Assembly: GCA_026003195.1 (NCBI GenBank)
Contig: BPGU01000005.1
Span: forward strand, 129,851 to 193,850
Direction of reading: 5' to 3'
DNA from: Armatimonadota bacterium
GTDB lineage: Bacteria > Armatimonadota > HRBIN16
Length of the DNA: 64,000 nt
In this document: positions 1,026 to 57,969 of the stretch, piece by piece
How positions within the stretch are numbered: the stretch's first letter is position 1
Layout of the letters: every line of letters begins with the position of its first letter
Notes under the pieces: generated by a model
The model's input: the letters and a program-made list of their open reading frames with translations, nothing else
What the model was told of the DNA's origin: nothing
Databases searched by the model: none
Program-made: the position numbers and the translations under genes

Positions 1026-1438
1026 GCAAAGAGACCACGCAGATACTGGATATGACTGTGCGTCAGGGCTCCCTGATGCCCGTGATATGGCAGGTGGTGG
1101 CTGTAGAGGGATCCGAGCAGGTGCACCTGCGCGGTAAGGTCATTCGCGTATTGATACGCGATACCGGCGTGCCGGAATACATCTCGGCCACCGTTCCCAG
1201 ATCGCGCATCCACGGCGGTCTGTACTTCATCCAGCCCGGCGTGATGCTGGTAAGCGCCCCTTACGGCAGTGACTGGTTACCTTCCGGTGGTGACTTGCAG
1301 TATGTTGCTGCGCCCATCGGTTTTGCCGATGCCGGAGTGCCTCAAGCCCCCACTGCCGGAACGCGGCGAGTTCTACTCCTGGTCTTATGTGGCTCAGATA
1401 GAGAACCACCGCCAGTTCTTTGTGCTCGCCACAGATGA
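1022..1438 (+). CDS. hypothetical protein (138 aa); its 3' part overlaps the start of the giant ORF in another frame
   Basis: The N-terminal two-thirds are protein-like. The last ~55 codons, which overlap the 1269 ORF, are low-complexity. Possible tail-assembly-chaperone-like overlap. Confidence 0.35.
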   Translation: MSKETTQILDMTVRQGSLMPVIWQVVAVEGSEQVHLRGKVIRVLIRDTGVPEYISATVPRSRIHGGLYFIQPGVMLVSAPYGSDWLPSGGDLQYVAAPIGFADAGVPQAPTAGTRRVLLLVLCGSDREPPPVLCARHR

Positions 1439-4400
1439 ATACACATCGAAGGTGGAGGGCGAGATCATCAGGGGTCAGGGCGGTCGTACGGGACGGGTGC
1501 AGATAGTGGTCGGTCAGCCTGCATCGCCGCGCGTGAAGCAGACGCTGATGAGTCGTTCCGAGTTTACCGCTAAGAGGAACGTGCGTCGCTACCATCCCTA
1601 TCGGGACGAGTTTGAGGCGCCGGTGATGTCCGAATGGACTTCTCTGGTTCCACCGCTGATGTTCGTGCCCGAGCTGATGGAGAACGAGAGCTATACTCTG
1701 CTAGGCTATGTGAGTATCCAGGTACCTCCACAGTCCATCCAGATCCGCAGGGAGCACGAGGTGGAGACCCAGCCGGTGTTGAGGTCTTCTACACTGCACA
1801 AGTCCGTTCGGGCGAACCTGACACATGAGTGGACGATGCAGTTCGTTGTGGAGGGCGAGGATATCAACAACAGGCTGGTGCCACTGCTCCGGCAGATAGA
1901 CCGGTGTCCGTTCCTGCCCATTGTGAACATCATGTTCAACCAGATGGGCATCACCGAGGTGGTTGTGGAGAGCGTGGAGATCTCCACCATACAGGACTAT
2001 CCGAACGCCCTGCAGGTTCAGCTCTCCGGCAGGAAGTTCGATACCGGCGGACTCGGCTTCATGATGCCGTTCGGTCTCAACTTCAACTGGCCGCTGTTCA
2101 AACTGTACACGGACTACCTGCCCCGATTCCTGCCCATAGATATTCCGATGAACGGCAAGGTGCAGTTGCTGGTGCCGAGCGACGAGTACATCGCGCAGGT
2201 GCTGGACAGGTTCTTTGAGACGGGCAGGATCGGTGAGAAGCTCGGATTCGCTCCTGGCGGTGGCTCGTCACCAACGGTAACGGTACCGCCGGAGATACTT
2301 ACGCAGCCGAACATCGGACATTTTGCGCTGCTCTCGCTACCGGATGATCCGAACCGTGTCGGTCGGTATGAGGTCGTCCGTGTAGATAACCCCAGGCATT
2401 TCAAGCATCTGGCACGTGCGGTAATGGACGGTGTTGTGGAGGGGCTGGAAGCCAGATCCATCACCGTTTCAGGGGGCGATGTGCAGATCTCGCGCGGTGT
2501 CATCCCGAACAGCGAGCTGGAGCGTCTTATCCGCAACGTGGATAGCGGTAAGCAGGGGCTGGCCCGGTCTGCGATGGAGAGCGTTGCCTTCTGCTGGCGC
2601 ATGGATTCCATCGGTAAGGTCTCCCGGTCCGAGCTGAACTCCACGCTCTCCAGAGTGCTGAACGCCACCTTCCAGAGCAAGCCCAGAGAGCGTGCCAGAT
2701 CAGCCGGTCCGGTATCGGACGGCGTGCCCAGGGCAGTGGATAAGCCCGATATGGTTCCTTTCCTGCCGGAAGGTTTGAACGTGGTCTGGCAGTCCGTATC
2801 GGTTGGATTCTCCAATATCGTGTCGGCGTTGAGACGCGATGTGGGCGACCCTGTGATGCAGTATCTGGGCAAATCGGACATCACCATCGTGCTTCAGGGC
2901 GTCGCCGATGCGGAAGGTCTATCCGTGTTACGCTCGCTGTTTGACCGGTTCATCGCCATCACCTACCTGTTAAGGGGCATCAGCTTCATCCAGCCCATAC
3001 GCATCCATTTCCGGATAGAGAACGAGATAGCGCGGCTGATGGGATTGGAGGAGGTGGTGCCCATCTCGCTGGACGTACACAATCTGGAGGGCAGCCCGGA
3101 CGCTTATGTAGTGACACTGACGTTTGTGAGCATGGACCCTGGCGGTGTGCAGCGTCGTGCCATGCGCAGACTCTCGGACAATATCACGCGCTCCGAATCC
3201 ATGTTCACGCTCACCTATTCCGGACTGGACGCCTCAAAGGAGCTGGACAGGTTGACCGCGGCGCTCAGACGGAGCGAGCTCTATCCGGACTTGAGGTTGC
3301 CCACGTACGGTCTGTTGCTGGAGTGGTGTCGCGCTCTGGCTTATAACCAGGGCATGGCACGCGACTTTGTGAACGAATCCCTGCGCGGACTGGCGCCTGG
3401 ACTGGAGCCGCAATATTATGAGCGATATGTGGCCAGCATACGTCGCGAGATGGCGCGGTTCCTCAGGGAGATCGGAGAGACCGGCCTGGTCAACCGCATG
3501 AGTCGTACCCCGTACGTGTTCGCCGATCCGGACTTCTTCTTCCATGATGGCAACGGTATCGGTTCCATCATCCGCCGTTCTATCCGGCAGCAGTTGTCCA
3601 GAGGCGCCGATACCGATGTGGTGGCGTATGACGATACCGGCGTGCAGGCTTCCATCACGGGCAACAGCGGTCGGTACAACGTTGCCATACACGATTCGCA
3701 CCAGTCGCTGGCGCAGTCCCTGCAAGAGGTGGCACGGCGCACGGTGGTCAATCATCCGTCTCTGGTTCACAGGGAGCAGGATATGTCCGAGTTGAACAGC
3801 TCCATCCTGCAGTCCTTTGTGGACCTGTCTGCAGAGTCTGCCGGTGTCTCCGAGGATCCGCTGGCGGCATCTGCGAGAGACCAGTCCGGCGCCTATCGGG
3901 AGTTCAGCGACAGGTTCAGGGATGCTTATGCCATCAAACGCAGTGATATCCTCATGCGCTACGATTACGATGTGCGGGACGATTCGCCTGCGCAGATGGT
4001 ATCGCAGCTGGAGAACGGTTCCATCAACCAGATGTATCTGGCCGCTCAGGCGCTACGTCAGCTCTTTGAAGGCAGGTCCGAGATAGACTTCCGTGAAGCC
4101 GCCCCTGTATCCGGTGTAGCCGGTGGCGTGATGCGCATCATCGACAGCGCGGTGGATTCGATGGTGCAACAGGCGGCTAATCCGCCGCTGGACAAGAGTT
4201 TCAAGGTGACCAACGCCGCCACGGACGCTCAGGTTCCCGCCACGTGGACGGTTGTGTGGAAGCCGGTACGCTGGGGACTTACCGTGCGAGTGTTGAGGCT
4301 GGTCGCGCCCAAACTCAAATCGTTCATGATGGGCATGATTGAACAGGAGTCCGGTTTCAATCCGTTCGCGGACTCCGGCAAGGCTTACGGTATCGGTCAG

Positions 4401-7400
4401 TTCACCGACGCCACGTGGAACGGTCTGCTCTCCAGCGGGAGGTTCGGCATCTATCTGCTCCGGGGCGGTCAGCGTAACTCGCCAGTCTCCGGTCCGGGCA
4501 GATGGGACGCGGCTACCATCATGAGTCTCTATTACCTGATGGAGCTGGTTACCGATGCGGTGTATAACGTGGTAGGCAAGGACGAACAGGTCCGTGATGA
4601 CTTTGCCGAGTATCTCTGTTTTGACCAGCCCGGTCTCAAGGCGAAGGTGAAGTCGGATCCGACCGCCGTGTTGAACGCGCCGGCGGGCTCCTCCGTTGCC
4701 GAGCGGTTACTGGTGCTCGGAGCCTGTCTGTACAACGCCGGACCGCAGGCTCTGCGTTCGGTGTTGAGGCAACTCGCTTCCAATGTGCGTTCGGGCAAAC
4801 GGGGCGCATCGTTGTTTGCGGTATCCCGAACGGACAGAGACCATGGCAGACTGGTCTATGAGCGGTATCAGAAGTGGTTGTCCAGATTGCCTTCAGGCGG
4901 TTCCGCAGGGATGACGTCGCAGCATCAGGAGGTATCGCATGTGAGCGGAGTCAATCCGACTTACTCGCCTGCGGTGCTTCGCCGGCCGGAGTATCAGCTA
5001 CCGGAGAACGCCGGTGATCCGTTCTACGATGTGCATAACGTCAAGAACTTCCCGCTCCTGCAGCTCACCGGCTGGTCGGATATGGCAAGGCATCAGCCTC
5101 ACGGCAGACTGCTCCAGTGTTTCCCCACCTACTGCATGTTGCTGGTTCAGGGCGGGCGCTGGGTACGCTGGACACGGTTCTGGGACCACTTCTACGGGCT
5201 GTTCTCCGTGATGTCCATCGATGTGCACAAGTCCAGAGAGAGTCCGCAGCATACGGCGGAGATCATCCTGGCGAACTCGTATCGGCAGCTCAGTAACCTG
5301 ACGGTCACGCAGGCTTACGCTCAGGCGGCTATAGCGGGCATGAGACCGTTCCAGTATGTGCAGGGCGAGGAGTTGATGCGCGGTAGCACCGGCAGCGACG
5401 CCACCGATTTCCTGGTGCAGCTGGTGAAGTCTGTGCAGAACTCGCTATTCCCGTTGCTGGGCGATTATGAGCGTCACGTCTGGAACCAGGAGATGAAGGC
5501 GCTCTTCCTGCATCCTGGCGAGCGTGTGCATCTGAGGATCGGTTATGGAGCCGATGCGGCGGCGTTACCGGTGGTCTTTAACGGTACCATCGCCAGCGTG
5601 GATATACAGGGCAGCGTCATCCGCATGCTGGCGCTCGGTGATGGGCGCGAGTTCCTGCGCGAGATCGCCACAGAAGGTCAGCCCTACAAGAACTCCAACC
5701 TGCTTGGGCAGACGGTAGAGGTGCGCAATATCCTGATAGATATGCTCGTATCCAGACGGGCGGACTCCATACCGGTTATCGGACCGGTGGTGTACACCTT
5801 CTCGGCGGGCGGTCTGCTCAACGATTCCCGGTTCGGTATAGAGAGCTTCGGTCGCATCGAGGCGCTTGCAGGTTCCACCGTCTTGCAGGACGTGAAGTCC
5901 GGTAACGTGAGTGTGCGCACTTTCAAGATACTGGGCATGGCCAGCTTCCAGGCGGGTGAGGGCGAGGTCGGTGTCAACATCTACAACAGTCAGCGTGATT
6001 CCAGCAATATCAGCATCGGCATGTTGCCTTTGCTGGACACGCTCACGCTGGGACTGTCCCAGATGGCACGCAACGGAGACTATATCGCCATCGAGTTGAA
6101 GCAGGGCACGGTATGGGACGTGTTCCGCAACTGCCAGCTGGCGGTGCTGGATGCTCTGATGAGCGTGGAGCCGTTCGGTTTGAGGAGCACTCTGTTCTTT
6201 GGACGCGGTAACCAGGCGTTGCATTACGATTACTACGATGCCGCCCAGATTGAGGCGCTCGGCTTGCCCGATGTGGCTTCGCATATCGCGCTCGGTGGAT
6301 ACTGGCGCATCATGAAGTTCAAGCAGTATCGGCAGTATCATCTGGCGGTATCCGAATGGAACCTCATTGCGAACGAGTTGACCGCATCGTCCGAGCGCAT
6401 GTGGAACGAGGTACAGAGTTTTGACGCGGAGGGCGTGCCCGGCAACAAGTTCACATTCGACCCGGCGATAGTGCCTGAGGAGCGCAAGCCTCTCTCTTTC
6501 CACTCCGCGTTGTCCACCACGCTCATGTCGCAGCTGTCGCTCGGTGCCGAGAGCAACTGGATATCCGTGCTCGCCAGGATAGGTATCGTGCGTAACCTGA
6601 TAGGGGAACGCGCCGGGCTGGCGATGCCTATTCGTGCGGTGAACAACGTGTCCGCCAACCTGGTGCGCGAGGGCGTGTCGCTCATGTATGACGGTTCCAT
6701 CGTGCTGGCAGGCGCGGCGGAGATTAAACCTCACGATTTCCTGTTCATCAGCGACCAGCTCCGCGCCATGCAGGGCACTGTGGTGGTGCGTGAGGTAGAG
6801 CATCACTTCTCCACGCAGCACGGTTATACCACGCTGATAGTGCCCGATGCGTGCGTGCTCGGTAACGGCGACCTGGACACCATCAACATCGTGCAGGCTT
6901 CCAAACAGGCGTGGAACCTCATACAGTTCTACCGGATGCGATCGGAGTTGTTGCTGATATATCGTTGCTATCTGATGGGCGTTCTGTACGGCGCCTCCAT
7001 GGCGCTTGGCAGGTTGCGGTTCATCACGCGCAGGATACCGGGCGCGGACAGGATGATGGACCGGTTCCTGGCGCTCATGTCGTCCGGTATGCAGCGGTTG
7101 AAGCCCACCAGGCAAGAGGTATGGAAGCTGGTGGTGAATGCGTTCAACTCGTCCCGCTACCTTGCCAATGACTTCTTTGGCACGCTGTTCCACGGCGCGT
7201 GGACGGTGAGAAGTATGGCGGACACACTGCGCGGTCTGGCGCTGGACAGTCTCGGTGCGGTTCGGTCACTGCTCAGTGGGCGCGGTATAGAGGCGTTCGG
7301 TAACGTGGCGTCCGCCGTGCAGAGACTCGCCGGACTGGGTGCAGCCAGACCGATATTTGCACTGCGTAACGTCGCTTCGGCTGTGGTCAAAGCGGTGGGC

Positions 7401-8324
7401 ACGCGCGGTAACCTGTTGTTGCTGTTGACTGGCGGAATCGTGGAGATGGTCAATCGCAAGCTGAACAGTTACTACTGTTGTCGTCTGTATCCGGTGCGCG
7501 TGAACGGGATGCCCCTGACCGCTGGTATACGCGGTCACTTTGGCACGGTGGAGGGCGACGATCCGGCGCCGATGCAGCGCGTGATGGATATCCTGACTCT
7601 GCAGGGGCTGAACATAGAGGAGCAGTCCCCTGCCGTTCTCAAAATGGGCGCCTCGCTGGTGAAGTTGTTGTGGCCGTTACAGCGCAACGTGAAGGCGACG
7701 CCAGGCACGGCGGACGAGGAGCTGGAGAACGCCAGACAGCAGTTCGAGCGACGCAGCCGATACGACATGATGGGCGTGTTCGGTAGCGTGGCGGAGATCT
7801 ATGGAGTGTCCGCTCCCACGTTACGGGAGGGTTCGGACGAGCTGGTGCGGCGTGAGCCGTTCCGCAGGAGCACGGTAGGCTACGCCCGTGGTGATGATCC
7901 CGCCAAGGGCGACTATCTCCTGGACTACATGCAGCCTCAGGCTTCGGCGATACTGAGGCAGCTGGTTCAGGAGCTCAGGCGACGCGGGGTGCAGGTGGCC
8001 ATCCATCAGGGCAGGCGTTCGCTGGAGGAACAGCGCAGACTCTATGCCCAGTTGCAGAGCGGGCAGCGTGGCAAAGCGGTTGCCAAACCGACGCCCGGTG
8101 CGCCTCATGTGTCCGGTAGAGCGATAGATGTGCAGTACAGGTATCCGGACGGCACATACCGGAGCTCACCGCCTCCTGACCAGGAGCGCATCATCCTGCA
8201 GGTGGTGCGGGAGTTCAACGTGCGGTACGCGCCTGCAAAGGTGCGCTGGCTGGGCGATCGCAGTCGGTATTCGGGCAGCGTGTATGAGCCCTGGCACTTT
8301 GACGTCTCCTTGCCTGGAAGCTAG
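1269..8324 (+). CDS. giant virion protein (2351 aa), tape-measure-like, with an internal lytic transglycosylase (SLT) domain and a C-terminal M15 (VanY / L-Ala-D-Glu peptidase-like) zinc peptidase domain
   Basis: SLT signature MMGMIEQESGFNPFADSGKAYGIGQFTDATW (nt ~4324-4440) with catalytic Glu in the EQES context. C-terminal HQGRRSLEEQRRLY...HVSGRAIDV...EPWHFD (nt ~7990-8310) matches the H-x(6)-D...H zinc ligands of M15 peptidases. Position ahead of baseplate-like genes supports the call. The exact start is uncertain (candidates at 1269, 1548, 1626). Confidence 0.8.
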   Translation: MTGYLPVVTCSMLLRPSVLPMPECLKPPLPERGEFYSWSYVAQIENHRQFFVLATDEYTSKVEGEIIRGQGGRTGRVQIVVGQPASPRVKQTLMSRSEFTAKRNVRRYHPYRDEFEAPVMSEWTSLVPPLMFVPELMENESYTLLGYVSIQVPPQSIQIRREHEVETQPVLRSSTLHKSVRANLTHEWTMQFVVEGEDINNRLVPLLRQIDRCPFLPIVNIMFNQMGITEVVVESVEISTIQDYPNALQVQLSGRKFDTGGLGFMMPFGLNFNWPLFKLYTDYLPRFLPIDIPMNGKVQLLVPSDEYIAQVLDRFFETGRIGEKLGFAPGGGSSPTVTVPPEILTQPNIGHFALLSLPDDPNRVGRYEVVRVDNPRHFKHLARAVMDGVVEGLEARSITVSGGDVQISRGVIPNSELERLIRNVDSGKQGLARSAMESVAFCWRMDSIGKVSRSELNSTLSRVLNATFQSKPRERARSAGPVSDGVPRAVDKPDMVPFLPEGLNVVWQSVSVGFSNIVSALRRDVGDPVMQYLGKSDITIVLQGVADAEGLSVLRSLFDRFIAITYLLRGISFIQPIRIHFRIENEIARLMGLEEVVPISLDVHNLEGSPDAYVVTLTFVSMDPGGVQRRAMRRLSDNITRSESMFTLTYSGLDASKELDRLTAALRRSELYPDLRLPTYGLLLEWCRALAYNQGMARDFVNESLRGLAPGLEPQYYERYVASIRREMARFLREIGETGLVNRMSRTPYVFADPDFFFHDGNGIGSIIRRSIRQQLSRGADTDVVAYDDTGVQASITGNSGRYNVAIHDSHQSLAQSLQEVARRTVVNHPSLVHREQDMSELNSSILQSFVDLSAESAGVSEDPLAASARDQSGAYREFSDRFRDAYAIKRSDILMRYDYDVRDDSPAQMVSQLENGSINQMYLAAQALRQLFEGRSEIDFREAAPVSGVAGGVMRIIDSAVDSMVQQAANPPLDKSFKVTNAATDAQVPATWTVVWKPVRWGLTVRVLRLVAPKLKSFMMGMIEQESGFNPFADSGKAYGIGQFTDATWNGLLSSGRFGIYLLRGGQRNSPVSGPGRWDAATIMSLYYLMELVTDAVYNVVGKDEQVRDDFAEYLCFDQPGLKAKVKSDPTAVLNAPAGSSVAERLLVLGACLYNAGPQALRSVLRQLASNVRSGKRGASLFAVSRTDRDHGRLVYERYQKWLSRLPSGGSAGMTSQHQEVSHVSGVNPTYSPAVLRRPEYQLPENAGDPFYDVHNVKNFPLLQLTGWSDMARHQPHGRLLQCFPTYCMLLVQGGRWVRWTRFWDHFYGLFSVMSIDVHKSRESPQHTAEIILANSYRQLSNLTVTQAYAQAAIAGMRPFQYVQGEELMRGSTGSDATDFLVQLVKSVQNSLFPLLGDYERHVWNQEMKALFLHPGERVHLRIGYGADAAALPVVFNGTIASVDIQGSVIRMLALGDGREFLREIATEGQPYKNSNLLGQTVEVRNILIDMLVSRRADSIPVIGPVVYTFSAGGLLNDSRFGIESFGRIEALAGSTVLQDVKSGNVSVRTFKILGMASFQAGEGEVGVNIYNSQRDSSNISIGMLPLLDTLTLGLSQMARNGDYIAIELKQGTVWDVFRNCQLAVLDALMSVEPFGLRSTLFFGRGNQALHYDYYDAAQIEALGLPDVASHIALGGYWRIMKFKQYRQYHLAVSEWNLIANELTASSERMWNEVQSFDAEGVPGNKFTFDPAIVPEERKPLSFHSALSTTLMSQLSLGAESNWISVLARIGIVRNLIGERAGLAMPIRAVNNVSANLVREGVSLMYDGSIVLAGAAEIKPHDFLFISDQLRAMQGTVVVREVEHHFSTQHGYTTLIVPDACVLGNGDLDTINIVQASKQAWNLIQFYRMRSELLLIYRCYLMGVLYGASMALGRLRFITRRIPGADRMMDRFLALMSSGMQRLKPTRQEVWKLVVNAFNSSRYLANDFFGTLFHGAWTVRSMADTLRGLALDSLGAVRSLLSGRGIEAFGNVASAVQRLAGLGAARPIFALRNVASAVVKAVGTRGNLLLLLTGGIVEMVNRKLNSYYCCRLYPVRVNGMPLTAGIRGHFGTVEGDDPAPMQRVMDILTLQGLNIEEQSPAVLKMGASLVKLLWPLQRNVKATPGTADEELENARQQFERRSRYDMMGVFGSVAEIYGVSAPTLREGSDELVRREPFRRSTVGYARGDDPAKGDYLLDYMQPQASAILRQLVQELRRRGVQVAIHQGRRSLEEQRRLYAQLQSGQRGKAVAKPTPGAPHVSGRAIDVQYRYPDGTYRSSPPPDQERIILQVVREFNVRYAPAKVRWLGDRSRYSGSVYEPWHFDVSLPGS

Positions 8325-8350
8325 TGCCAATTAGTTTAAGGAGTGATGTT

Positions 8351-8740
8351 ATGCTATCCGGTTCCATCAAGAGGCAGATAGGTCAGTCCGTTCAGAACAC
8401 CTGCACTTCTGTGGCGGCGGAGGTGTTCGGCGATCCCATTCGCATGCCGGACGGCACCTATCAGGTGGTGGTGGAGATGATAGGTGGCGGTTACGGCGGT
8501 CGTTCCACGCTGGTGGCGGTGTACACGGACCAGCAGACGGGGGTGACCGGTGCGAGTTTAAAGAGCGGCGATCTGGTGCTCGTCTCGTTTGACGAGAAGG
8601 GGAGCGCCTCGCCCCGTATCACCAGCGTCATCTCCAGATACACCGCTTTCAGCAACCAGAGCATCCGCAGTCGCCCTGCGGTGTCCGATGCAACTCGTGC
8701 GGACACCACATCGATGATGGTGGTAGGTGGTGCGCCATGA
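8351..8740 (+). CDS. hypothetical protein (129 aa)
   Basis: ATG at 8351 with AAGGAG 8 nt upstream. The ORF-track alternative start is at 8324. Confidence 0.5.
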   Translation: MLSGSIKRQIGQSVQNTCTSVAAEVFGDPIRMPDGTYQVVVEMIGGGYGGRSTLVAVYTDQQTGVTGASLKSGDLVLVSFDEKGSASPRITSVISRYTAFSNQSIRSRPAVSDATRADTTSMMVVGGAP

Positions 8741-8782
8741 GTGCCGGAGGTGGTGCGCCATGAGTGCCGGAGGTGTTATGCC

Positions 8783-9352
8783 ATGACGCTGGCGGAGAGT
8801 CTGGATGCACTGTTCGAGTTGATGGAGCGAAGCGAGCGGGATGTGGCGGTAGCGCAGGGCGACGAGCTGGTGGTAGCGCATCCGCAGGGCAGGCACGGAC
8901 TGTTTGTGCGGGACGGCGGGTTCGTGGATATAGCGTCCGGCACTCAGGTAGTCGGACTGAACAGCATGGGACTGGTTGCGGACCTGAACGTGCTGGACTG
9001 CAGGGCGTCGGTGGTGTCGATCAACACGCAGTCGCTGTGGATAAACACGTTGCCTGGCGGGTTAATAGTGGACGGATACGCCGCCGACGCAGGTATCCTG
9101 CATGGCGAGTTGATAGGTCGCTATCTGCGGGACGCGAAGGTGGTTATCACCAGAGGTTCGCTGAAGCAGATCCAGAAGGCGCGTGGTGATAAGGCTTCCA
9201 GTCCCGTAGAGTCCCCGGTCTGTCAGGAATGTCCCAATCTGGTATCGGTGCCGTTGTCCAGCCTCATCGAGCCGTTCGGCTGGAGCAGACCGCTGGATGC
9301 GAAGTTGCTCAGCAGGTTCAATCAGGTATTGAACAGGGTGAGAGGGCTATGA
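8783..9352 (+). CDS. hypothetical protein (189 aa)
   Basis: ATG 8783 (MTLAESLDALF) preceded by GGAGGTG. Upstream there is a 24-bp tandem duplication. Confidence 0.5.
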   Translation: MTLAESLDALFELMERSERDVAVAQGDELVVAHPQGRHGLFVRDGGFVDIASGTQVVGLNSMGLVADLNVLDCRASVVSINTQSLWINTLPGGLIVDGYAADAGILHGELIGRYLRDAKVVITRGSLKQIQKARGDKASSPVESPVCQECPNLVSVPLSSLIEPFGWSRPLDAKLLSRFNQVLNRVRGL

Positions 9353-9798
9353 GAGACCTTACTATCCAGACGGCGCGTGTGGACCGGTTTGTAGATATCC
9401 AGCTGGAGCCGAACGGTGATCTCAAGCTGTTACCGAACGGCGACCTTGCGCTGGATGACGATATAGACGCGGTGGAGCAGGCTATCCGCTGGCGGCTGTT
9501 GACGGAGCTGGGCAGCTGGTATCTGGAGCCGGAGTGCGGTAGCGAGATACTCTCCTTTGCAGGGCGACCGAACTCGCCGGAGACGGCGCAGCTGGTGGAG
9601 TCGGAGATATACAGGGCGCTCTCTCATGACGGCTTCATCATGCCCGATGAGATAGAGATACATACCGCGCCTCTGGACGCCAGTCGGATGACGGTGATCC
9701 TGATGGTGCGGGAGGCGCTCGGTGTGGAACGCGCAGCCTTCCAGTTTGAACTGAACCTCATATCTGGAGAGCTTACGGGATGGCAGAGAATCGCTTGA
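9351..9798 (+). CDS. baseplate protein, GpW/gp25-like (149 aa)
   Basis: Size, position after the TMP-like gene, and a pattern (LKLLPNGDLALDDD...AIRWRLLTELGSWYLEPECGSEI) resembling the GPW_gp25 family. Confidence 0.45.
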
Positions 9799-11573
9799 GA
9801 ATTGCCGGTCTGGCGTCGGACGATACCGGTTGTGGTCACTACCGGTTGATCCATCCACTCAAGGCGCTTTCCGATGCCGGTCACGATACGGTATGGAGCA
9901 CGGACCCGTTACAGTTCATGAATCTGGCAGAGCAGGCGGATGTGGTCATCCTGCAGAGATGTACCTATCCGCCGATAGTGGAGCAAATAGGGCGATGGAA
10001 GCGTTCTAAGCTGGTGATCTACGAGCTGGACGACCTACTGCACTGTATACCTCCGGATAATCCCTCCTTCCGTTACTACAAGCCAGGCGGTGACCTGTTG
10101 AAACATGCTACCAGAGCGATTGTGGAATCGGACGGGATGATAGTCTCCTCTTACGAGCTCTGGAAGTATTATCAGCGCTACAACAGGAACATCATCATCA
10201 TCCCGAACTTCATTGACTTCAAGCTACGGGATTGGCAGAGCGAGTATCCCCGTGCCCGGCATCGGATAGTGGTAGGCTGGTCCGGCGGAAGTCAGCATCA
10301 GCCGGACGCGCAGTTGATAGCCTCCGTGTTGAGGACGGCGCTGGAGTATCCGCAGGTGGATATCGGTCTGTACTGTCATCCCCATTTTGCAGGCTACTTG
10401 ATGCAGTATCTGCCCGATGTGCCGCCGGAGCGTGTATTGCTTTTGCCGGTACGTCCATTCCGCGATTATCCCTATCAGCTCGGAGCGTTCGATATCGCCA
10501 TCGCGCCGGTGGCGAACAACGAATTCAACCGCGCCAGGTGTCTGCATTCCGATACGCCGGTGTGGACGCCTGCCGGTATGAGCACTATCGGCGCGTTGAA
10601 GCCCGGCGATTGGGTATGGAACGGTGAGCGTTATGTGCATGTGCTGGCGGTTCATCATGATGGCGGCTCGCTGGGCATGGAGCTGGAGCTGGATTGTGGA
10701 TTGAGCGTTCAGCTCACACCGGAACACAGGGTACTTACATCTATTGGATGGCTCAACGCAGGTAAGCTCCGACGCGGGGACAGGATACAGCTGGCTGCGC
10801 CAAACTATTCCGGCTACGGCGAGAAGCGGTATTCGCCGCAGCAGGCAGCCGAGATCGCTATGGATAACCGCCTCCAGTTCAGACCACATGAGCTGTTCTC
10901 AGGATGGAGTAACGGGGATATGGTCGCCTGGGCGCAAGCTTTATGGAGCAGGTATGGTGGTCAGGACAGGCGTGGCAGGGTCTATCTCACCGTGAGGCGC
11001 GAGGTGGCTCCGTTCTTTGCTCTGGCTTTACTGCTCTCAGGCAGAGGTTGCAGGGCGAACTGGTATACGCGCTCCGTGCGGTTCACTCTGCTGGACGAGG
11101 GCGCTCCGGAGTATTCCAGCATCAGAGGTATCCGCGCCAGGTGGATTGATGCAGTGGATATTCAGGTTGAGGGTGAGTTGTTCTGCGCGAACGGCGTGGT
11201 ATCTCATAACTCCAGTTTGAAGCCGCTGGAGTATATGGCGCGTGGTGTGCCCTGTATCGCTTCCGATGTCGCCGAGTACCGTCTGTTGTACAGACAGGGT
11301 GCGCCCTTCCTGCTTGCAAACACCATGCAGGACTGGCGCAGATGTCTGGACGCTCTGATCACGCAGAGGGTTTCCCCGACGGAATGGGTACAGACGCATT
11401 ATGACCTGCACCAGAACGTGTATCGCTATGAGCAGGCGATACAACAGTTCCTGCAGTGGAAGCGTGAAGGGTGTGTCGGTAAGGGTCAGGTGTTTGTGCT
11501 GGAACGGAAGCATCCCTGTCCCTGCGGCAGTGGCGAGCGTTACGGACGTTGCTGCTATCCGGTATTTGGATAA
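9780..11573 (+). CDS. glycosyltransferase family 1 (GT-B)-like protein interrupted by an intein, with a C-terminal SEC-C metal-binding motif
   Basis: The extein junction NNEFNRAR|SLKPLEYMARGVPCIASDVAEY reconstitutes the GT4-type nucleotide-sugar binding (EX7E-like) motif. The C-terminal HPCPCGSGERYGRCC is a SEC-C motif. Confidence 0.7.
   Translation: MAENRLRIAGLASDDTGCGHYRLIHPLKALSDAGHDTVWSTDPLQFMNLAEQADVVILQRCTYPPIVEQIGRWKRSKLVIYELDDLLHCIPPDNPSFRYYKPGGDLLKHATRAIVESDGMIVSSYELWKYYQRYNRNIIIIPNFIDFKLRDWQSEYPRARHRIVVGWSGGSQHQPDAQLIASVLRTALEYPQVDIGLYCHPHFAGYLMQYLPDVPPERVLLLPVRPFRDYPYQLGAFDIAIAPVANNEFNRARCLHSDTPVWTPAGMSTIGALKPGDWVWNGERYVHVLAVHHDGGSLGMELELDCGLSVQLTPEHRVLTSIGWLNAGKLRRGDRIQLAAPNYSGYGEKRYSPQQAAEIAMDNRLQFRPHELFSGWSNGDMVAWAQALWSRYGGQDRRGRVYLTVRREVAPFFALALLLSGRGCRANWYTRSVRFTLLDEGAPEYSSIRGIRARWIDAVDIQVEGELFCANGVVSHNSSLKPLEYMARGVPCIASDVAEYRLLYRQGAPFLLANTMQDWRRCLDALITQRVSPTEWVQTHYDLHQNVYRYEQAIQQFLQWKREGCVGKGQVFVLERKHPCPCGSGERYGRCCYPVFG
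10539..11210 (+). other. intein (224 aa) within the GT-like gene
   Basis: N-terminal block A CLHSDTPVWTPAGMSTIGAL, block B TPEHRVLT, C-terminal VDIQVEGELFCANGVVSHN followed by +1 Ser. Coordinates derived from codon positions. Confidence 0.8.
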
Positions 11574-11582: not shown

Positions 11583-11852
11583 GTGTTCAAGTTGAATGGT
11601 TGTCCACCATGCCCGCACTCTGACGAGATAGACCGGATTAGGGATTTACTGTACGGTAACGGTGACGAAGGTATCAGGACAAAGCTCGCCAGGATGGAGG
11701 AGCGGATGGAGCGGCTCAGTGACGACATCAAAGAGATTCATGAACAGTGGATGTATCGGATGGAAGTACGTCTGCGCTGGATGGTGGCGATAGCCACGTT
11801 GATAGGTAATCTGCTGATACAGCTTCTCATCAAGTATGGAGGTAAGTTATGA
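11583..11852 (+). CDS. small coiled-coil protein with C-terminal transmembrane helix (89 aa)
   Basis: ORF. Hydrophobic C-terminus VAIATLIGNLLIQLLI. Confidence 0.45.
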   Translation: MFKLNGCPPCPHSDEIDRIRDLLYGNGDEGIRTKLARMEERMERLSDDIKEIHEQWMYRMEVRLRWMVAIATLIGNLLIQLLIKYGGKL

Positions 11853-12193
11853 GATCTCTCTGGAACAAGATGGTGCGGTTTGTCAGGGACCTGTGGTACC
11901 GGTACCGGATGGGCGACCTGTTGAAGCGTGCACTGGCGGTAGCCCTGCTGGAGGCGGCGCAGTCGGTACTGCAGAAGGATTACGCCAGTCCCGCCAGGGT
12001 GAAGTCCGCGGTGCGGAACGCGCTGAGCCATGCGGTGGAGCGGTTACGGTTGCCGGAATCCTACCGGTCGTGGTTACTGGAGCCGTTGCTGGAGCTGTCA
12101 GACCAGCTGATAGACCGGCACTATGGCGACAACGGTGCGGTTCTCAACGCCCTGCGCGTTTACCTTTATGCCAGACTCGGTATCCGGGACTGA
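11849..12193 (+). CDS. hypothetical protein (114 aa)
   Basis: ORF with 4-nt overlap to the previous gene. Confidence 0.5.
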   Translation: MRSLWNKMVRFVRDLWYRYRMGDLLKRALAVALLEAAQSVLQKDYASPARVKSAVRNALSHAVERLRLPESYRSWLLEPLLELSDQLIDRHYGDNGAVLNALRVYLYARLGIRD

Positions 12194-12208: not shown

Positions 12209-13300
12209 TTGGCGGTACTCCGTCCCAGTTATGAGGAGCTGGTTGAGAGGGCGAAGGCGTTAATCCAGACGCTGACGCCTATCAACCAGTTCCATGAGTC
12301 CTCTGTGGCAGGCGCCATCGTGCGTGTGTTCGCGGCGCTCATGTCGCAGATGTATGATACGCTGGAGCAACTCGAGCGGGACTCCAACCTCAGCACGGCA
12401 ACCGGACTGGCGCTGGACAGAATCGGTCAGACGTTCGGTGTGTTGAGGTTGCCCGCTCGACGCGCCTCATCCTTTGGGGCGGCGGAGCCGGTGAAGTTCA
12501 CCAACAACACCTCCGCAGCGGTCACCGTTCCTGCAGGTACCCGTGTGTTCAGCTCCAGGTTCCCCTACAAGGCTTATCGTACCGTAGACACCATCAACGT
12601 GCCTGCCGGTGGAGAGGCGTATGTGCATGTGGTTGCCGAAGGTGACGGCAGCGATTACAACGCCGGCGCCGGTGAGATAGACCGCCATAACCTGCCCGTT
12701 ACCGGTCTGCAGGTGGTGAACGTGGCGCCGCTGGTGGACGCATCAGACGCCGAATCTGACGAGAGCTACCGGGCACGGATAGCACAGGCGTTCCTCAGAC
12801 GTTACTACGGCTCCAGCGCAGCCATCACGGCCGCCTTGCGCGAACTGCCCGGTGTGGTGGATGTGGTGCTGTTGCCGACGCGACGAGGACCGGGCACGCT
12901 GGACGTGTTCGTGGTGCCTGCCGTTCTGCCCGCCGATGGCGAGTTCGTGCAGTCCCTGCAAGAGGTGCTGGACCGGGAGGTGGTGCCCGGTATAGACTGG
13001 CGGTTGATCATACCGGATCCGACGCCTGTGGATGTGATGGTGCGGGTCAAGATGCGCGTGGGATGGAGTCAGGCGCTGGTGGACTCTGTGCGGCTGGCTG
13101 TGCGTGGTTATGTGGATAACATCGGACTCGAGGGCACGCTCTATGCCAGCGAGTTGCTGTCCAGGGTGATGGATGTCTCTACAGATATAGAGGATGCCGA
13201 GGTGCGCGTGTTTGTGCGCGGGCTGGAGATAGGCAGGAGTTATACGGCCGATGTGATGGAAGTGTTGCGTTCGCGGAACGTAGATATTATGCCGTTCTGA
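12209..13300 (+). CDS. baseplate J-like protein (363 aa)
   Basis: N-terminal pattern resembles the Baseplate_J/gp47 family (conserved ...TATGLALDRIGQTFGVLRLPARRAS...). TTG start with GGAGGTG upstream. Confidence 0.55.
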   Translation: MAVLRPSYEELVERAKALIQTLTPINQFHESSVAGAIVRVFAALMSQMYDTLEQLERDSNLSTATGLALDRIGQTFGVLRLPARRASSFGAAEPVKFTNNTSAAVTVPAGTRVFSSRFPYKAYRTVDTINVPAGGEAYVHVVAEGDGSDYNAGAGEIDRHNLPVTGLQVVNVAPLVDASDAESDESYRARIAQAFLRRYYGSSAAITAALRELPGVVDVVLLPTRRGPGTLDVFVVPAVLPADGEFVQSLQEVLDREVVPGIDWRLIIPDPTPVDVMVRVKMRVGWSQALVDSVRLAVRGYVDNIGLEGTLYASELLSRVMDVSTDIEDAEVRVFVRGLEIGRSYTADVMEVLRSRNVDIMPF

Positions 13301-13307: not shown

Positions 13308-14267
13308 ATGCTACGATACGACTACCTCCAGAGCCCGCTGCTGCCGGCATGGATACCGCAGAGTGGGCTATTTGTTCTGTTCCTCAAAGGTGTGCTGGAC
13401 AACCACTTCCAGGATACCCTGTTGTCCATCATCTATCCGTCCCTGTTCCCGAACTACGCCTATGTGTGCGAATACGACGACCCGCCACAGACGCTCCTGG
13501 TCACATTGACACCTGGCGGTAACGTGCCTGTAACCATCAGCACGCAACGCACCGATGTCTATGATAATCCGCTCCCGTTTGCCCTGTATGATGGCAAATG
13601 GTTAGTGATATTCAACCTGCATACGGGCTCTGCTTCCGGCGGGGCGCCCGCATCTGGATTACCGCATCCGCTCTGGTGCGATGGCGAAGTGCCGGGCACC
13701 TTGTTGACGCTGAGCGACCATCTCGTGGGCGGAAGGGCGCTGTGGAGAACGCCTGGCGGGGTATGGCGCAGCGCCACGCTGGAGGAGCGCGGTCTGTTCG
13801 TTCCAGGATCCTATGCGAGCATAGAGTGTCGTTACGAGAGACGACCGCCATATCCGTCTGCGTCGTTACCGGACAGACCGTTGCAGTTCCGGTATCTGTG
13901 GAGCAGAGGAGACGATGTGCTCCGCCTGTATGGGATGCACAGACACCGCAGGAGTCTTGGTAGGGCTCTCCAGAACGTCCGTGGCAGGTTGCCCGGCGCG
14001 CATCAGTTTGGAATCGCCTCCGAGCTGGGACTGGTGGAATTTGTGCCACGACATGAGCTGTACATGCACTTCACTGCACCTGCGGGATGCAGCGCGTTGT
14101 ACGGCACCTATCTGGCTCGTCTGCTCCGGGCAGAGTATCCGAACACGCTGTCCGGCATGGACGCCATCCACCAGTCCGGAGAGACCTCCGTTGTGCTCAT
14201 AAAGAACCTGTGGGTGGACACGTTACCACTGAGCATACGCGGCGAGCTCACCGCTGATGTGACATGA
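13308..14267 (+). CDS. tail/baseplate protein, unknown function (319 aa)
   Basis: ORF placed between the J-like gene and the tail fibre. Confidence 0.5.
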   Translation: MLRYDYLQSPLLPAWIPQSGLFVLFLKGVLDNHFQDTLLSIIYPSLFPNYAYVCEYDDPPQTLLVTLTPGGNVPVTISTQRTDVYDNPLPFALYDGKWLVIFNLHTGSASGGAPASGLPHPLWCDGEVPGTLLTLSDHLVGGRALWRTPGGVWRSATLEERGLFVPGSYASIECRYERRPPYPSASLPDRPLQFRYLWSRGDDVLRLYGMHRHRRSLGRALQNVRGRLPGAHQFGIASELGLVEFVPRHELYMHFTAPAGCSALYGTYLARLLRAEYPNTLSGMDAIHQSGETSVVLIKNLWVDTLPLSIRGELTADVT

Positions 14268-17200
14268 TAAACACCTACTTCTGGATAATCGGATGGCTAT
14301 CCTTCTCCGGTATGCTGGGCGAGGTACAGGGCGCCTCGTCCGTCACCGGTGAGCTCAGCGTTCATCGCGCCGTGTATGTGCAGGTGGAGAGCAGCACGGC
14401 ATGTGAAGGCGAACTGCACGCATGGTATGCACTACACGTCAGTCCGTCCGGTCAGTCCGATGCGGATAGCACTCACCTGTCCGCCGTTCACGTCATAGAT
14501 TCCACCGTAGAATGTTCGTCTCAACCGGATGTTCATCTATCCCGCGTGCTCCCCATCGAAGCCGAATCGTCCGGCTCCAGCTCCGTCTCCGGCAGGATAA
14601 CGATCAATCAGGTAGATATCTACGACCTGCTGGTGAGCGGAGCGTGCTCCGTATCTGGAGATATCAACAGGTTATTCAAACTGGTAGCCGAGATATCCGC
14701 CGCGTCACAGGTGGACGGCGAGTTCCAGCTGGAGCGCAGTCCTGAAGTCACTGTAGAGACTCTATCCAGCGTATCCGCCGAACTGAATGCATACTACTCG
14801 GTAGATTCCGGGATAGATTGCTCGTCCGACGTATCCGCCCACATCACCGTTAATCCCGTCGAGATAGACGCCGACCTGGAGTGCAGCTCCGGGCTGTCCG
14901 CAGACCTGTCTGTCTACTTCGCTCTCGGTTCCGACGTATCCGGCTCTACAAGCATAAACGCCCAGCCCGATGTCACTCACACGCTCCGTATGAGCGGTGA
15001 GTCGTTCCCGAGCAGCACTGTATCCGCTAACCTGAACAAATGGGGCGCCGGATACAGTGTCGTTCAGGACAAGAGCGTCGTCTCCGGATACCTGAACGTG
15101 CAGTGGGCGCTCTGGTCTTTGCTCACCACGGCGCCGTTAAGCAACACCAGACTGGACGTACACCTTTCCGTCCGATACGAGACCTCGGTAAGCATCGTCA
15201 ACCTGAAATCTACCGTTAGCGGCTGGGTGGCAACCAGGTTCGGCGTCACTTCCGGTATAGACCAGAACGCATCCGTCGTGTTCGCCGACAAGATGACGCT
15301 CAATCCGGTCTGGTTCACCGGATTGCTCGTGCAGGGCGAGACCTCGCTGGATACCGATATGCACGCCAACCGCATGGTGGCGTCCGGCGTGTCCGGTTCC
15401 TCCAGCCTCGACGTCTGGATGAACCGCTACGGAGCCTGCTGGTCTCAGGTTACCGGTAATAGTGTATGCAGTGCCTACCTGAACCGCTACGCAGCTTGCT
15501 GGACCGATCTGAACAGCCAGTCTCAGGTCACCGGCACGCTGAACGTACACAGAGCCATCCAGTCCGAAGTGTCCGGCTCCACCTCGTTGAGTCTGGACTA
15601 CTCGAGGATGCGCAACCTGTACGGTGAGTGTTCGGACAACTCCACCACCATGACCGGTAAGGTCACCATGAACCCGGCATGGATAGTGGATGCGGTGTCC
15701 GAATGCTCATCGAGCGTTACCGGTGAACTGAACAGGAAGTTCGCGGTAGAAGGCTCATCGGGCGGCGATACCTCCATGCAGGCGGACTCATACCGCATGC
15801 GCAACCTGGAGACGCTGATCGAAGCATCGAGTTCGGTGTCCGCCAGTTTGAACGCAGCGTTTGCCGTCCGGTCAACCGTCCAGCCGAACACGCAGATCAA
15901 CGTCCATCTGTCCAGACGATTCTACCTGCCGGACGTTGCTGTTACCGGTATCACCAGCGCCACAGCTTATCTGTCCGCCATACGTCCGATATCGGCGTCC
16001 GTGCCGGACTGTCGCACAACGATAGATGCCAACGCTTACCGCAAACGCAACGCGGTGCCGGACCTCATCTACGGATACAGCGTCGTTTCAGGTCACCTCA
16101 CCATAAACGCGGTGGATATGGATGGGGAAGTGCCGAACGGAGCAACGCAGGTCGATGCGGAGCTCAAGGTCGGCAAGATGGTGGAAACCACCGTCTCCGG
16201 TTACTCGGACGTATCCGCGTATATCAACGTCCACTATGGGCTGTGGACGGTACCACAATGTAGCACGCTGGTTGATTCCGGTCTGAACGCATGGTTCGCC
16301 TGCCGGTCTCAACCGGAAGCTTCTACGGATGTTCAGGCTCATCTCTCCAGAAGGTTCTACCTGCCAGACAAGACGATAGACGGTCTGTCTCAGGTATCCG
16401 CCGATATCGGTGTCAAACGCGCCGTGCTTTCCGGCATAGATGGATGCGCCTCCGATCTTGATGTGGTGCTGAACGTGAGGCGCTCCATCCTGTCGGATGT
16501 GGTCAACAGCCACTCGTCCGTCACCGGTCTGTTGAGGAAGAACATCCGATCCGTGGAAGCCACGGTACCCGGTTGTTCTTGCCTGGTGGGCGCCACGCTG
16601 AACATCAAGATGGGCGTTGCCGGAGAGTGTTCAGGTGTTACGGACGTAGACTGTACCGCCTACCGCAAGCGCAACCTGGAGGTTGTGGTCCAAACTGAGA
16701 CGGAGCCGAGCTCGCATCTATCGCGCAGATTCTACTTTGACTGGACCACTCTGGACGGTCAATCCAGTCTGAGCGTCTACCTGTCCGCCATAAGACAGAT
16801 TACGGCATCCATCGCTGGCGTCACATCCATTGACTGTACGGCATACCGCAAACGCAACGTGGTGTCCGATACCGTTGCCGGATACAGTCTCGTATCCGGT
16901 CACGTGACGGTCAACCCGGTGGAGATAGATGGCGATTCCTCAGGCAGCACGCACCTTATCGGCACGCTTTCCCTGTTCGCCTCTGTACAGACCGATGCTA
17001 CCGGCGGTTCCCTGATAGAAGGCACTCTCAACGCCGAACGCAGCATCAAGTCCGATATCGTCGGAACTTCGAGCGTGCAGGCAACTCTCAACGCCGAACG
17101 CGCCATCGGTTCCGATATCCAGTGCTCCGACGATGCATCGGCGTATCTGAACGCATGGTACTCCTGCAACTGTCTGTGCGATGACAACGATACCACGCTC

Positions 17201-19327: not shown

Positions 19328-19423
19328 TGGGTACTGTTATATCGGATTACGTCCCCAATATCCCTGCCAATATTTATGCTGGTATCATACTCTTCCATTC
19401 AATAAGGAGGCTGATTAGAACCT
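19328..19423 (+). promoter_or_regulatory. AT-rich intergenic region with -10-like elements and a strong SD (AAGGAGG) upstream of the next gene
   Basis: The only clearly AT-rich intergenic stretch in the virion module. TATCAT/TATACT-like hexamers. Confidence 0.3.
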
Positions 19424-19873
19424 ATGCCTGGCAGCAAGTCCAACTACTTTGAGCGCGCCGTGCTGGACTGGGCGTTCCCGCCCACCGGTAGCGCCACTTC
19501 GTTCACTCCACCGTCCACCCTGTATGTGGCGTTATGCACCGGCACCGCCCCTACGTCGGACCCGGCTTCTCTGGCTGAGCCGAGCGGTGGCGGTTATGCC
19601 CGCGTGGCGATAGACAACACGCTGGGCACCACTTCCACGTGGGGACCGGCTACGACCGACGGTAGCGGTGTGACCACCAAGAAGAACGTGGTGGAGATCG
19701 AGTTCCCGCAGGCGACCGCCTCGTGGGGCACCATCACCTGGTTCGCCATCGTGGACTCGAACGGCGCCAACCCCAACATCCTGCTATGGGGCACGCTGAA
19801 CACGTCGGTCACCATCAACACCGGCGACACCGCCGTGTTCCGTATCAACGGTATCACTATCCAGGAAGACTGA
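19424..19873 (+). CDS. small virion structural protein (149 aa)
   Basis: Strong SD. Ser/Thr/Gly-rich beta-like composition typical of small tail or decorator proteins. Confidence 0.65.
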   Translation: MPGSKSNYFERAVLDWAFPPTGSATSFTPPSTLYVALCTGTAPTSDPASLAEPSGGGYARVAIDNTLGTTSTWGPATTDGSGVTTKKNVVEIEFPQATASWGTITWFAIVDSNGANPNILLWGTLNTSVTINTGDTAVFRINGITIQED

Positions 19874-19887
19874 TGGAGGTATAGACG

Positions 19888-21447: not shown

Positions 21448-21449
21448 CG

Positions 21450-28100: not shown

Positions 28101-29133
28101 GCTGTCCATACCGCTGGTTCTGAAGGGGTTTGGCAACAACTCCATCTCCGTCTACGTGAACAACCGCGCCTGGCCTTCGGATCTGGTGCGCATCAATGAT
28201 CCAGAGTACTTCGGTCCGGCTTCGGAGAGCGTGGAGCGTCGGTTGAGTCTGCTCATCTACGGTCAGGGTCAGCAGTTTGTGGTGGAGGATATAGACCTGG
28301 TGGCGAACGGAATGTTAAAGGACCATCCGGTGCCTGTAGCTCTCAAGGCGGGCAGACAGTTCCGCAAGATGTCCACCTTCCAGACCATCGTGCCCGTCAA
28401 GGTGACCGTGGACACTCCGTTCGGGCTGTTCAGACCGGACATCACGGGCGAGTTGCCCCTGTCCGGTAACCGCGAGGTAAGAGACGAGCGTCTGGAGCTG
28501 GCTTCGGACCTGGTGCTGGAGCAGTATGAACAGGACGTGGTGAGCGGACTCATCTCACGGAGCATCCGGTATGATAAGCCGGTATATGCCACCAGGTTCG
28601 CGCCCATAGCCCTGCACCAGAACGGTAATCCCAGACTGGAGTTAAGGATACATAAACGCTCGGACGGTTCGCTGTTCAAGAGGCTTGAGCGTCGCGACTA
28701 TGTGCTCGATCACAGGCGCGGTCTGATACAGCTTCTGGACGATCCCGGCTCGGACTATTACGTTGTCGCCGACTACTGGTTCACCGTGGTGAGCGAGGCG
28801 CAGCTCAGGGCGTATAACGAGCAGGTGCGCGGGGACTGGATAACCAGGAACAGGACGGACTACCTGTCTGGAACAATACCTTCCCTGAAGTCGCTTCGCT
28901 TCACCGCAGACGAGGTATCCGGCTATCCTGTGCTGGAGTACTACCATAACGGTAACAGGCTGATACTCTCACAGGAGATACCGCCTCCTGCCGATGCACG
29001 ATACGCCGTATCGGTAGCTTACTGGTATCTGCCGGTCAATCCGGCGGTGAAGGTCATACTGCGCCCTGGTTATGATTCCACGCTTGAGGTGAACGTGCCT
29101 CCCGTACTGCGCAGACTGGTGGTGATGACATGA
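25139..29133 (+). CDS. large structural protein (~1331 aa)
   Basis: ATG 25139 with GGTGGAG upstream. The ORF-track start is 25129. Confidence 0.7.
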
Positions 29134-48022: not shown

Positions 48023-48064
48023 TTGTTGCGCCATCTGATTGTTGCGCCATCTGATTGTCCACCG
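48020..48064 (+). repeat. 16-bp direct repeat x ~2.7 (cgccatctgattgttg) overlapping the stop of paralogue 1
   Basis: Read directly from the sequence. Confidence 0.7.
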
Positions 48065-48253
48065 TGTGTACTGGTAAGCACGGTGGATACGGATGTACAT
48101 ATTCTCCGAACAGGACCTCAACCGATCCTGGCAGGCGTTTAACGAGCTCTTCCAGCAAGACGTTGTACCCCGCATCAAGGCGAGCATCATGGGGCACTAC
48201 ATGCAGCATAAGACGCCCTATGATGCGTTCCGATACTCGCCCGCCGTCTGGTA

Positions 48254-53080: not shown

Positions 53081-53091
53081 GAACGTGCCTC

Positions 53092-57955: not shown

Positions 57956-57969
57956 TGCTGTAGAACCTC

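Follow-up and report, generated by a model that had tools for sequence, protein, structure and literature searches.

In a large survey of prokaryotic inteins, 61.5% of the host proteins in bacteria and 66.9% of those in archaea function in replication, recombination and repair, and a further 21.7% and 8.3%, respectively, in nucleotide metabolism (PMC4760082). A survey of actinobacteriophage inteins published in 2025 names 19 host genes, none of which encodes a glycosyltransferase. Phage inteins such as those of ribonucleotide reductase, the terminase large subunit and DnaB helicase are selfish elements placed in the catalytic motifs of conserved genes. The intein described here resembles them in these respects but, unlike the inteins of phage replication and packaging proteins, it resides in a predicted sugar-nucleotide enzyme encoded within a structural gene cassette. 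It lies in a stretch of 64,000 nt (hereafter, the window) from contig BPGU01000005.1 of assembly GCA_026003195.1, filed under Armatimonadota. The element is of a known kind, a class 1 intein with a decayed LAGLIDADG homing endonuclease, in a host and at a site for which we could not find a report; full-text literature searches returned no account of an intein in a glycosyltransferase. The gene very probably encodes a GT4-like glycosyltransferase of a phage baseplate cassette, interrupted by a selfish intein that has lost its endonuclease, and the spliced enzyme most likely glycosylates a virion protein.

The closest described intein, by both sequence and fold, is the RecA intein of Mycobacterium tuberculosis (Mtu), PI-MtuI. 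With it, and with LAGLIDADG class 1 inteins such as those of archaeal VMA, the window intein shares the HINT fold, Cys1, the TPxH(R/K)VLT motif and a terminal HN, and the endonuclease domain is inserted centrally at the same place as in PI-MtuI. It differs from PI-MtuI in host and insertion site, in having Ser rather than Cys at +1, in an overall identity of only about 18%, and in an endonuclease of which only a dead half-domain, about 80 aa long, is left. The host protein shares the two-Rossmann fold of the GT4 GT-B enzymes (MshA, BshA, GlgM, PimA and PglA), as well as the strand in which the second Glu of the EX7E motif is followed by Gly-x-Pro-x-x-Ala/Ser. In contrast to those enzymes, its family has a five-residue insert (NRxKS), does not conserve the first Glu or the Arg/Lys pair, and carries signatures of its own (DxxGCGxYR, YELDD, GWxGxxxHxxD and FNRxKSxLKxxEY), to which phage members add a SEC-C tail. 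The tail has the CxCxSGx8CC spacing of the SecA C-terminal zinc domain and of YchJ-type SEC-C proteins but, unlike in those proteins, is fused to a phage glycosyltransferase. Mycobacteriophages offer a precedent for virion glycosylation by phage genes located beside structural genes: in these phages, subunits of the capsid and of the tail tube are modified by phage glycosyltransferases (Freeman et al. 2023, cited in PMC12619734). Those phages are siphoviruses of Actinobacteria, and the likeness to the window drawn here is one of gene placement.

Evidence for a Class 1 Intein

The open reading frame of the original prediction, which had been made without database searches, was confirmed (597 aa, + strand; Table 1). 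Its ATG is preceded, at a distance of 8 nt, by a GGAGAG ribosome-binding site, and a protein from a public assembly (P0001) is nearly identical to the encoded precursor, the difference being R253K. The 224-aa intein proposed at the same time also proved correct: it begins with CLHSDTP at Cys254, ends with VVSHN at Asn477 and is followed by Ser478. Sequence blocks, the HINT fold and intein-free alleles agree, and confirm, far beyond chance, that the insert is a real class 1 intein of the HINT superfamily, in a decayed state. The proposed junction stood on its NEFNRAR side and was corrected on the C-extein side, where the sequence is SSLKPLEY with two Ser residues. Excising the insert in silico gives a 373-aa protein with the restored sequence NEFNRAR↓SSLKPLEYMARGVPCIAS (here and below, ↓ marks the insertion bond). 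The N-extein contains a GWSGGSQHQPD motif and closes with FNRAR, and after Ser478 the C-extein continues SLKPLEYMARGVPCIAS, which includes the invariant Glu484. Intein and exteins have the same GC and GC3 contents.

A search with the spliced extein returned nine further long homologues (614–629 aa, about 55% extein identity) and eight short ones (373–465 aa, 30–35% identity), so that looking for an identical insertion site, as had been suggested, did uncover more proteins with inserts at the same bond. In an alignment of homologues the insert is present in 11 and missing in 10. It always lies between a Lys or Arg and the invariant Ser of FNRxK↓SxLKxxEY, and the 10 intein-free homologues read across this bond ungapped. 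The precursor carries C254, T313..H316, D460, H476, N477 and S478, and the +1 Ser is invariant across the 11 inteins. Within the inteins at this site, C1, T6, V8, G13, T60, H63 and N224 are likewise invariant, while D207 and H223 are kept in 10 of the 11. The intein aligns with the solved Mtu RecA intein at E 1.4e-7, with TPEHRVLT opposite TPDHKVLT. AlphaFold2, given the 11 inteins, produced a model with a pLDDT of 94.3 and a pTM of 0.89, whose top 50 Foldseek matches in the PDB are exclusively inteins, hedgehog domains or bacterial intein-like (BIL) HINT domains, with the Mtu RecA intein as the best (E 2.3e-9). In the 10-member clade to which the window protein belongs, identity is 64% in the N-terminal splicing region and 72% over the last 30 aa of the intein, 32% in its centre and 58–60% in the exteins, the pattern to be expected of a working splicing domain around a decaying core. 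A query with the intein alone against an index of 5.8 billion proteins gave no match, not even to P0001, which we attribute to a limit of the word index and do not take as evidence on the intein.

To judge from these residues, splicing is probably autocatalytic. Cys254 would form a thioester with Arg253 that is attacked by Ser478, cyclisation of Asn477 would free the intein, and an O-to-N shift would then produce a normal peptide bond and a contiguous FNRAR-SSLKPLEY loop, as in the intein-free relatives. An intact sugar-donor site would exist only in the spliced 373-aa protein, and the precursor is presumably inactive.

A GT4-Like Host Protein

The model of the spliced extein (pLDDT 90.2, pTM 0.87) is of high confidence across the junction and shows an alternating strand-helix pattern arranged in two Rossmann-like domains. 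A Foldseek search of the PDB gave 430 matches at E ≤ 0.001, led by the GT4 retaining enzymes GlgM, BshA, MshA, PimA and PglA (E ~1e-13, TM 0.6–0.68), and the viral structure library BFVD returned glycosyltransferases only (TM up to 0.78). The family profile matched MshA at E 1.5e-12, aligning the segment PladneFNrcKSaLKvlEyaAvGvPvvaS to the EX7E region. The description of the host as a GT-B glycosyltransferase-like protein is thus supported by three kinds of comparison, and the placement of the intein in a nucleotide-sugar motif also agrees with the data, as the insertion site falls within the region aligned to EX7E. More precisely, the site is in the NRxKS insert, just before an invariant Glu (E484 of the precursor, E260 of the spliced protein) that aligns with the second Glu of EX7E. 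In GT4 enzymes this second Glu binds the nucleotide ribose. The junction stands at the 99.3rd percentile of positional conservation in the family.

The family comprises 5,355 representatives at E ≤ 1e-30. Its signature FNxx[KR]Sx[LIVM][KR]xxE is contiguous in 128 of 175 collected proteins, which include giant multi-domain glycan synthases that are fused to GT2, other GT1 and methyltransferase domains and pass Pfam cut-offs. Homologues P0012, P0023 and P0024 carry precomputed matches to PF00534, PF13524 and PF13692. A degenerate DNA pattern for FNRxKSxLKxxEY has matches in the genomes of many bacterial and archaeal phyla, a breadth that gives no clue to the host of the phage. A broad cellular family with these motifs supports a catalytic glycosyltransferase family, and the spliced protein is presumably an active transferase. 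For annotation, the case shows that an intein can mask a glycosyltransferase from standard domain searches unless the sequence is spliced in silico.

The SEC-C tail of the original prediction, CPCGSGERYGRCC, reaches the Pfam cut-off (PF02810, 20.4 bits) once the protein is spliced, with 20.7 bits as against 19.9 in the precursor. The family profile also matches solved SecA C-terminal zinc peptides and YchJ-C (E ~1e-5), and the Cys residues are conserved in homologues that bear the tail. The tail itself occurs in 62 of 137 short phage-type homologues and in none of 38 giant ones.

The Baseplate Cassette and the Probable Acceptor

The glycosyltransferase gene had been placed among baseplate genes, and this is borne out by a gp25-like gene directly upstream and a Baseplate_J gene downstream (Table 1). 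The order gp25-like gene, glycosyltransferase, Baseplate_J is found in the window and in all 12 of the related loci compared, with or without an intein; these loci are on contigs of 11–217 kb, with extein identities down to about 30%. A locus search with the SEC-C pattern confirmed 10 loci as relatives, eight of which (L006–L013) hold the full gene. By gene order, the glycosyltransferase gene is a stable member of the baseplate cassette in a group of large phages. The gp25-like ORF is listed as 9229–9798 (189 aa), but the ATG at 9349 is the probable start, giving a protein of 149 aa and abutting the stop of the upstream ORF. The counterpart in the closest relative (L001) is also 149 aa and carries PF10934.

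The enzyme would be made late in infection together with the tail proteins, and would move a sugar from a nucleotide-sugar to a virion protein of the tail or baseplate. The original prediction had suggested glycosylation of the virion or of the host surface, which is a reasonable proposal. We favour a virion acceptor because of the likely co-expression with tail genes and the mycobacteriophage precedent cited in PMC12619734. The conserved cassette order in large uncultured phages offers a lead to possible virion glycosylation, or to receptor modification, beyond the actinobacteriophages. Glucosylation of DNA, as performed by the T4 glucosyltransferases, was considered and judged unlikely given the position in a structural cassette and the GT4-like fold.

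Several observations weigh against a splicing intein in an active, virion-modifying transferase, and they concern the intein, the enzyme and its acceptor in turn. The window intein scores below the curated values of Pfam Intein_splicing (20.9 vs. 35.8 bits) and TIGR01445 (18.9 vs. 24.5), so the proposed check with intein models fails for this sequence, although the homologous intein of L009 at the same site passes Intein_splicing with 42.8 bits. The spliced extein also falls short of Pfam, at 24.4 vs. 27 for Glyco_trans_1_4 and 20.6 vs. 25 for another glycosyltransferase model; the multi-domain homologues pass. Since both window sequences are below gathering scores, the two assignments are based on homologues, profiles and structure. 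The position of the first EX7E Glu is variable in the family alignment, with the 5-aa insert between it and the second, and the Arg/Lys diphosphate pair of MshA is aligned to Gly and Ala. The protein is for this reason called GT4-like and not a GT4 member, and its chemistry may differ from that of GT4 enzymes or be limited to sugar binding. The closest homologues in cultured phages (about 27% identity) are encoded outside baseplate cassettes. The SEC-C tail is modelled at low confidence, which is expected of a zinc site modelled without its metal. Finally, the nature of the acceptor is a guess, and an envelope or membrane acceptor, reached by way of the SEC-C tail, is nearly as plausible as a virion protein.

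The low scores could be taken to mean that the insert does not splice and is an inactive domain insertion or part of a decaying pseudogene. In addition, no other intein of the clade is as short as that of the window, which has lost about 25 further aa from its centre. That deletion, however, falls within the dispensable endonuclease remnant, the reading frame is intact with all catalytic residues present, and ten diverged homologues retain both intein and extein motifs, which makes a non-splicing insert very improbable.

Loss of the first Glu and of the Arg/Lys pair, together with the conserved place in the cassette, would also suit a structural or sugar-binding baseplate component that has given up transfer activity and in which the intein is merely tolerated. 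Against this, the conserved polar residues R22, D84, D85, H173, D176, N250, K/R253, S254, K257 and E260 are typical of an active site, the cellular multi-domain glycan synthases retain the same motifs, and the homing sites of endonucleases are usually catalytic motifs. A non-catalytic role is accordingly considered unlikely.

A possible alternative, though less probable than modification of the virion, retains the same anatomy but has the enzyme act on the host cell envelope. The basic SEC-C tail would target it to the inner membrane or the Sec machinery, where it would glycosylate a surface glycan or one linked to lipid. This could, for instance, hide the phage receptor and so guard against superinfection, or against progeny being lost to cell debris. 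The SEC-C motif matches the C-terminal domain of SecA, which binds SecB, ribosomes and anionic lipids. Among the closest solved folds, many (such as PimA, MshA and PglA) belong to enzymes that act at the membrane or close to it and whose acceptors are lipids or small molecules; cellular homologues occur as domains of multi-domain polysaccharide synthases, and an 89-aa ORF with a hydrophobic C-terminal segment lies just downstream. Receptor-masking genes can adjoin receptor-binding genes, as in phage T5, where llp is next to the gene for pb5. A virion-linked role is nevertheless the better match for a gene that lies strictly between gp25-like and Baseplate_J in 12 of 12 loci. The small downstream ORFs, moreover, are kept in the closest relative only, and the neighbourhood shows no sign of a lysogeny module.

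Decay of the Homing Endonuclease

The centre of the window intein aligns with the second LAGLIDADG half of the L009 intein and is a vestige of the endonuclease, the first half-domain having been deleted. Compared with L009, the first 85 aa are 38% identical (E 8.5e-13) and the last 22 aa 73% identical. The second LAGLIDADG motif is VAWAQALWSRYGG in the window intein versus RAFLRGYFESDGT in L009, and its acidic residue is lost, Tyr replacing the Asp of the ESDG found in L009 and L013 (ESDG to SRYG). Larger inteins at the same bond were drawn from IMG/VR loci and from an exhaustive protein search. Those of L009 (371 aa) and L013 (373 aa) match LAGLIDADG_3 with 97 and 79 bits, respectively, the 327-aa intein of L008/P0019 is degenerate (16.8 bits), and the inteins of the window clade (224–250 aa) have no Pfam LAGLIDADG match. 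The inteins of this one site thus span the whole course of decay, from a LAGLIDADG endonuclease that is still intact to one of which only a dead remnant is left.

In a neighbour-joining tree of spliced exteins, the members of the window clade all bear the intein, and occupancy elsewhere is patchy; for example, L012 is without an intein while its sister L013 has two. The simplest reading of these sequences is that homing by a LAGLIDADG endonuclease, of which relatives retain intact versions, brought the intein to this site, and that it was then fixed and passed on by vertical descent in the window clade while the endonuclease decayed to a folded remnant.

Conditional splicing is documented for other inteins (PMC5790916), and the intein could have been co-opted as a switch that responds to redox state through Cys1, to temperature or to assembly state, so that the enzyme is turned on only late in infection. 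The splicing domain is conserved like the exteins across about 45% sequence divergence, and the central remnant is still confidently folded in the model. Yet any intein fixed in a needed gene should conserve its splicing residues, many close relatives work without an intein, and no regulatory feature was found in the analysis, which leaves a switch quite improbable. The intein should be regarded as a selfish element rather than a regulator.

Repeated Invasion of the Family

The extent of intein invasion was assessed in the top 150 representatives of the exhaustive search, of which the 112 shorter than 1,300 aa were examined. Large inserts with intein signatures, one or two each, were found in at least 23 of these 112. 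The original prediction had called inteins in glycosyltransferases unusual, which is true of published surveys and does not hold within this family. Ten representatives are occupied at the site of the window intein (site b, FNxxK↓S) by class 1 inteins of the form C...HN↓S. Site a, GG[ST]↓[ST]HxxD, is occupied in 13 representatives (C...GN↓T/S, conservation percentile 79), and one tested insert passes LAGLIDADG_3. Two representatives have inteins at site c, GK↓[TS]VxYExDD (percentile 64), that begin with Gly, have Trp in block B, Cys in block F and a THN end, and pass LAGLIDADG_3; from these residues they appear to be class 3-like. Site d, PN↓[S/C]IDF (percentile 93), is tentative, with motif-level evidence only from one representative. 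The inteins at the other sites were found among related proteins P0036–P0135, and P0047, P0057 and P0073 have two each, P0073 corresponding to L013 (locus 5962–8955). The family has thus been invaded repeatedly, at three well-supported sites and a tentative fourth.

A sugar-nucleotide enzyme of a structural cassette is therefore a repeated target, with at least about a fifth of the examined representatives occupied. This fits the view that inteins settle where a motif is conserved enough for endonuclease homing, and not specifically in proteins that handle DNA. The new mini-inteins with Ser or Thr at +1 are also candidates for protein-engineering tools. A bolder proposal, which we hold to be doubtful, is that this is a core baseplate-linked enzyme of widespread uncultured large phages, either glycosylating tail or baseplate proteins or itself carried in the virion, that is so conserved as to have become a major intein target outside nucleic-acid metabolism, for class 1 and class 3-like inteins alike, and that its intein load gates its activity.

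The window intein had been described as a second one, and rightly so, since a class II (B12-dependent) ribonucleotide reductase of the window is interrupted as well. Its insert is a 220-aa mini-intein (aa 400–619) that scores 59 bits with Pfam Intein_splicing and is inserted at NP↓CGE, which we take to be the active-site Cys motif of the reductase. The two window inteins are both of the mini-intein type, some 220 aa long and decayed in the centre. The idea that they are copies of one another was rejected, as they share only 22% identity (E 0.005).

Other Features of the Window

The coordinates of the precursor gene, its parts and neighbouring features are given in Table 1.

Table 1. Features of the intein-containing gene and of other genes in the window (positions are those of the window)
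Feature	Position	Strand	Remarks
Gene for 2,351-aa protein	1269-8324	+	precedes the baseplate genes
gp25/GPW-like baseplate wedge (sheath initiator) gene	9349..9798	+	directly upstream; 19-nt overlap with glycosyltransferase start
Precursor gene, GT-B glycosyltransferase-like with SEC-C tail, intein-interrupted	9780..11573	+	single open frame, 597 aa plus stop
N-extein, aa 1-253	9780..10538	+	N-terminal Rossmann-like domain and first half of C-terminal domain
Class 1 intein, 224 aa, precursor aa 254-477	10539..11210	+	insert-free homologues, RecA-intein similarity, AlphaFold2 model, PDB fold matches
Intein block A, CLHSDTPVWTPAG	10539..10577	+	Cys1, predicted N-terminal nucleophile
Intein block B, GLSVQLTPEHRVLT	10698..10739	+	TxxH at intein T60 and H63
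LAGLIDADG homing-endonuclease remnant, intein aa 96-178	10824..11072	+	vestigial; first half-domain deleted, second motif degenerate
Intein blocks F and G, IDAVDIQVEGELFCANGVVSHN	11145..11210	+	D207, penultimate H223, terminal N224
C-extein, aa 478-597	11211..11573	+	opens with Ser478 (predicted +1 nucleophile), family-invariant
SEC-C zinc-binding motif, CPCGSGERYGRCC, aa 580-592	11517..11555	+	Pfam SEC-C score, family-profile matches
Small ORF, 89 aa	11583-11852	+	between glycosyltransferase and Baseplate_J
Small ORF	11849-12193	+	between glycosyltransferase and Baseplate_J
Baseplate_J gene	12209..13300	+	Pfam Baseplate_J 100 bits; phrog_6 E 7e-45
Class II ribonucleotide reductase	41286-44087	-	intein-interrupted
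Mini-intein of ribonucleotide reductase	42231-42890	-
Sigma-70 region 2 protein	44008-44796	-
T4-type RNA ligase	52004-53134	-	PF09511
CRISPR-Cas locus	55300-62404	-	phage-borne
Helicase of CRISPR-Cas locus	55300-57366
Cas5	57329-57955		PF09704
CRISPR array	~58006-59416
Cas7/DevR	59655-60767		PF01905
ORF of CRISPR-Cas locus	60764-62404		546 aa

Among 50,697 phage records, blastn returned no match to the region, and Pfam and PHROGs returned nothing for most neighbouring ORFs, including most of the large ORFs in 14264–32728 and 46400–51425. These results point to a lineage of large phages that is very divergent. A tblastn match in Escherichia phage phiWec188 was discarded as a functional clue, since it lies among small hypothetical genes and outside any baseplate cassette.

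Ahead of the baseplate genes, the window encodes a giant protein that resembles SLT/lysozyme around aa 1020 and has a VanY D,D-carboxypeptidase domain at its C-terminus (aa 2220–2344); its counterparts in related loci are 2,500–2,640 aa long. Both small ORFs that follow the glycosyltransferase gene are conserved in L001 alone. In the product of the first, a coiled region is predicted and the C-terminal segment, WMVAIATLIGNLLIQLLI, is hydrophobic, so that the protein may be membrane-anchored. In a more distant locus with the same baseplate cassette (L004, 15323–18403), genes for RuvC and a Cpn60/GroEL-type chaperonin are found just downstream. The window also carries a T4-type RNA ligase gene and a phage-borne CRISPR-Cas locus that includes, besides genes for a helicase, Cas5 and Cas7/DevR and a 546-aa ORF, an array of about 21 repeats of about 30 nt (GTTTCTATCCTACTTAGGTATGTACCTGAC) with a period of 66–69 nt.

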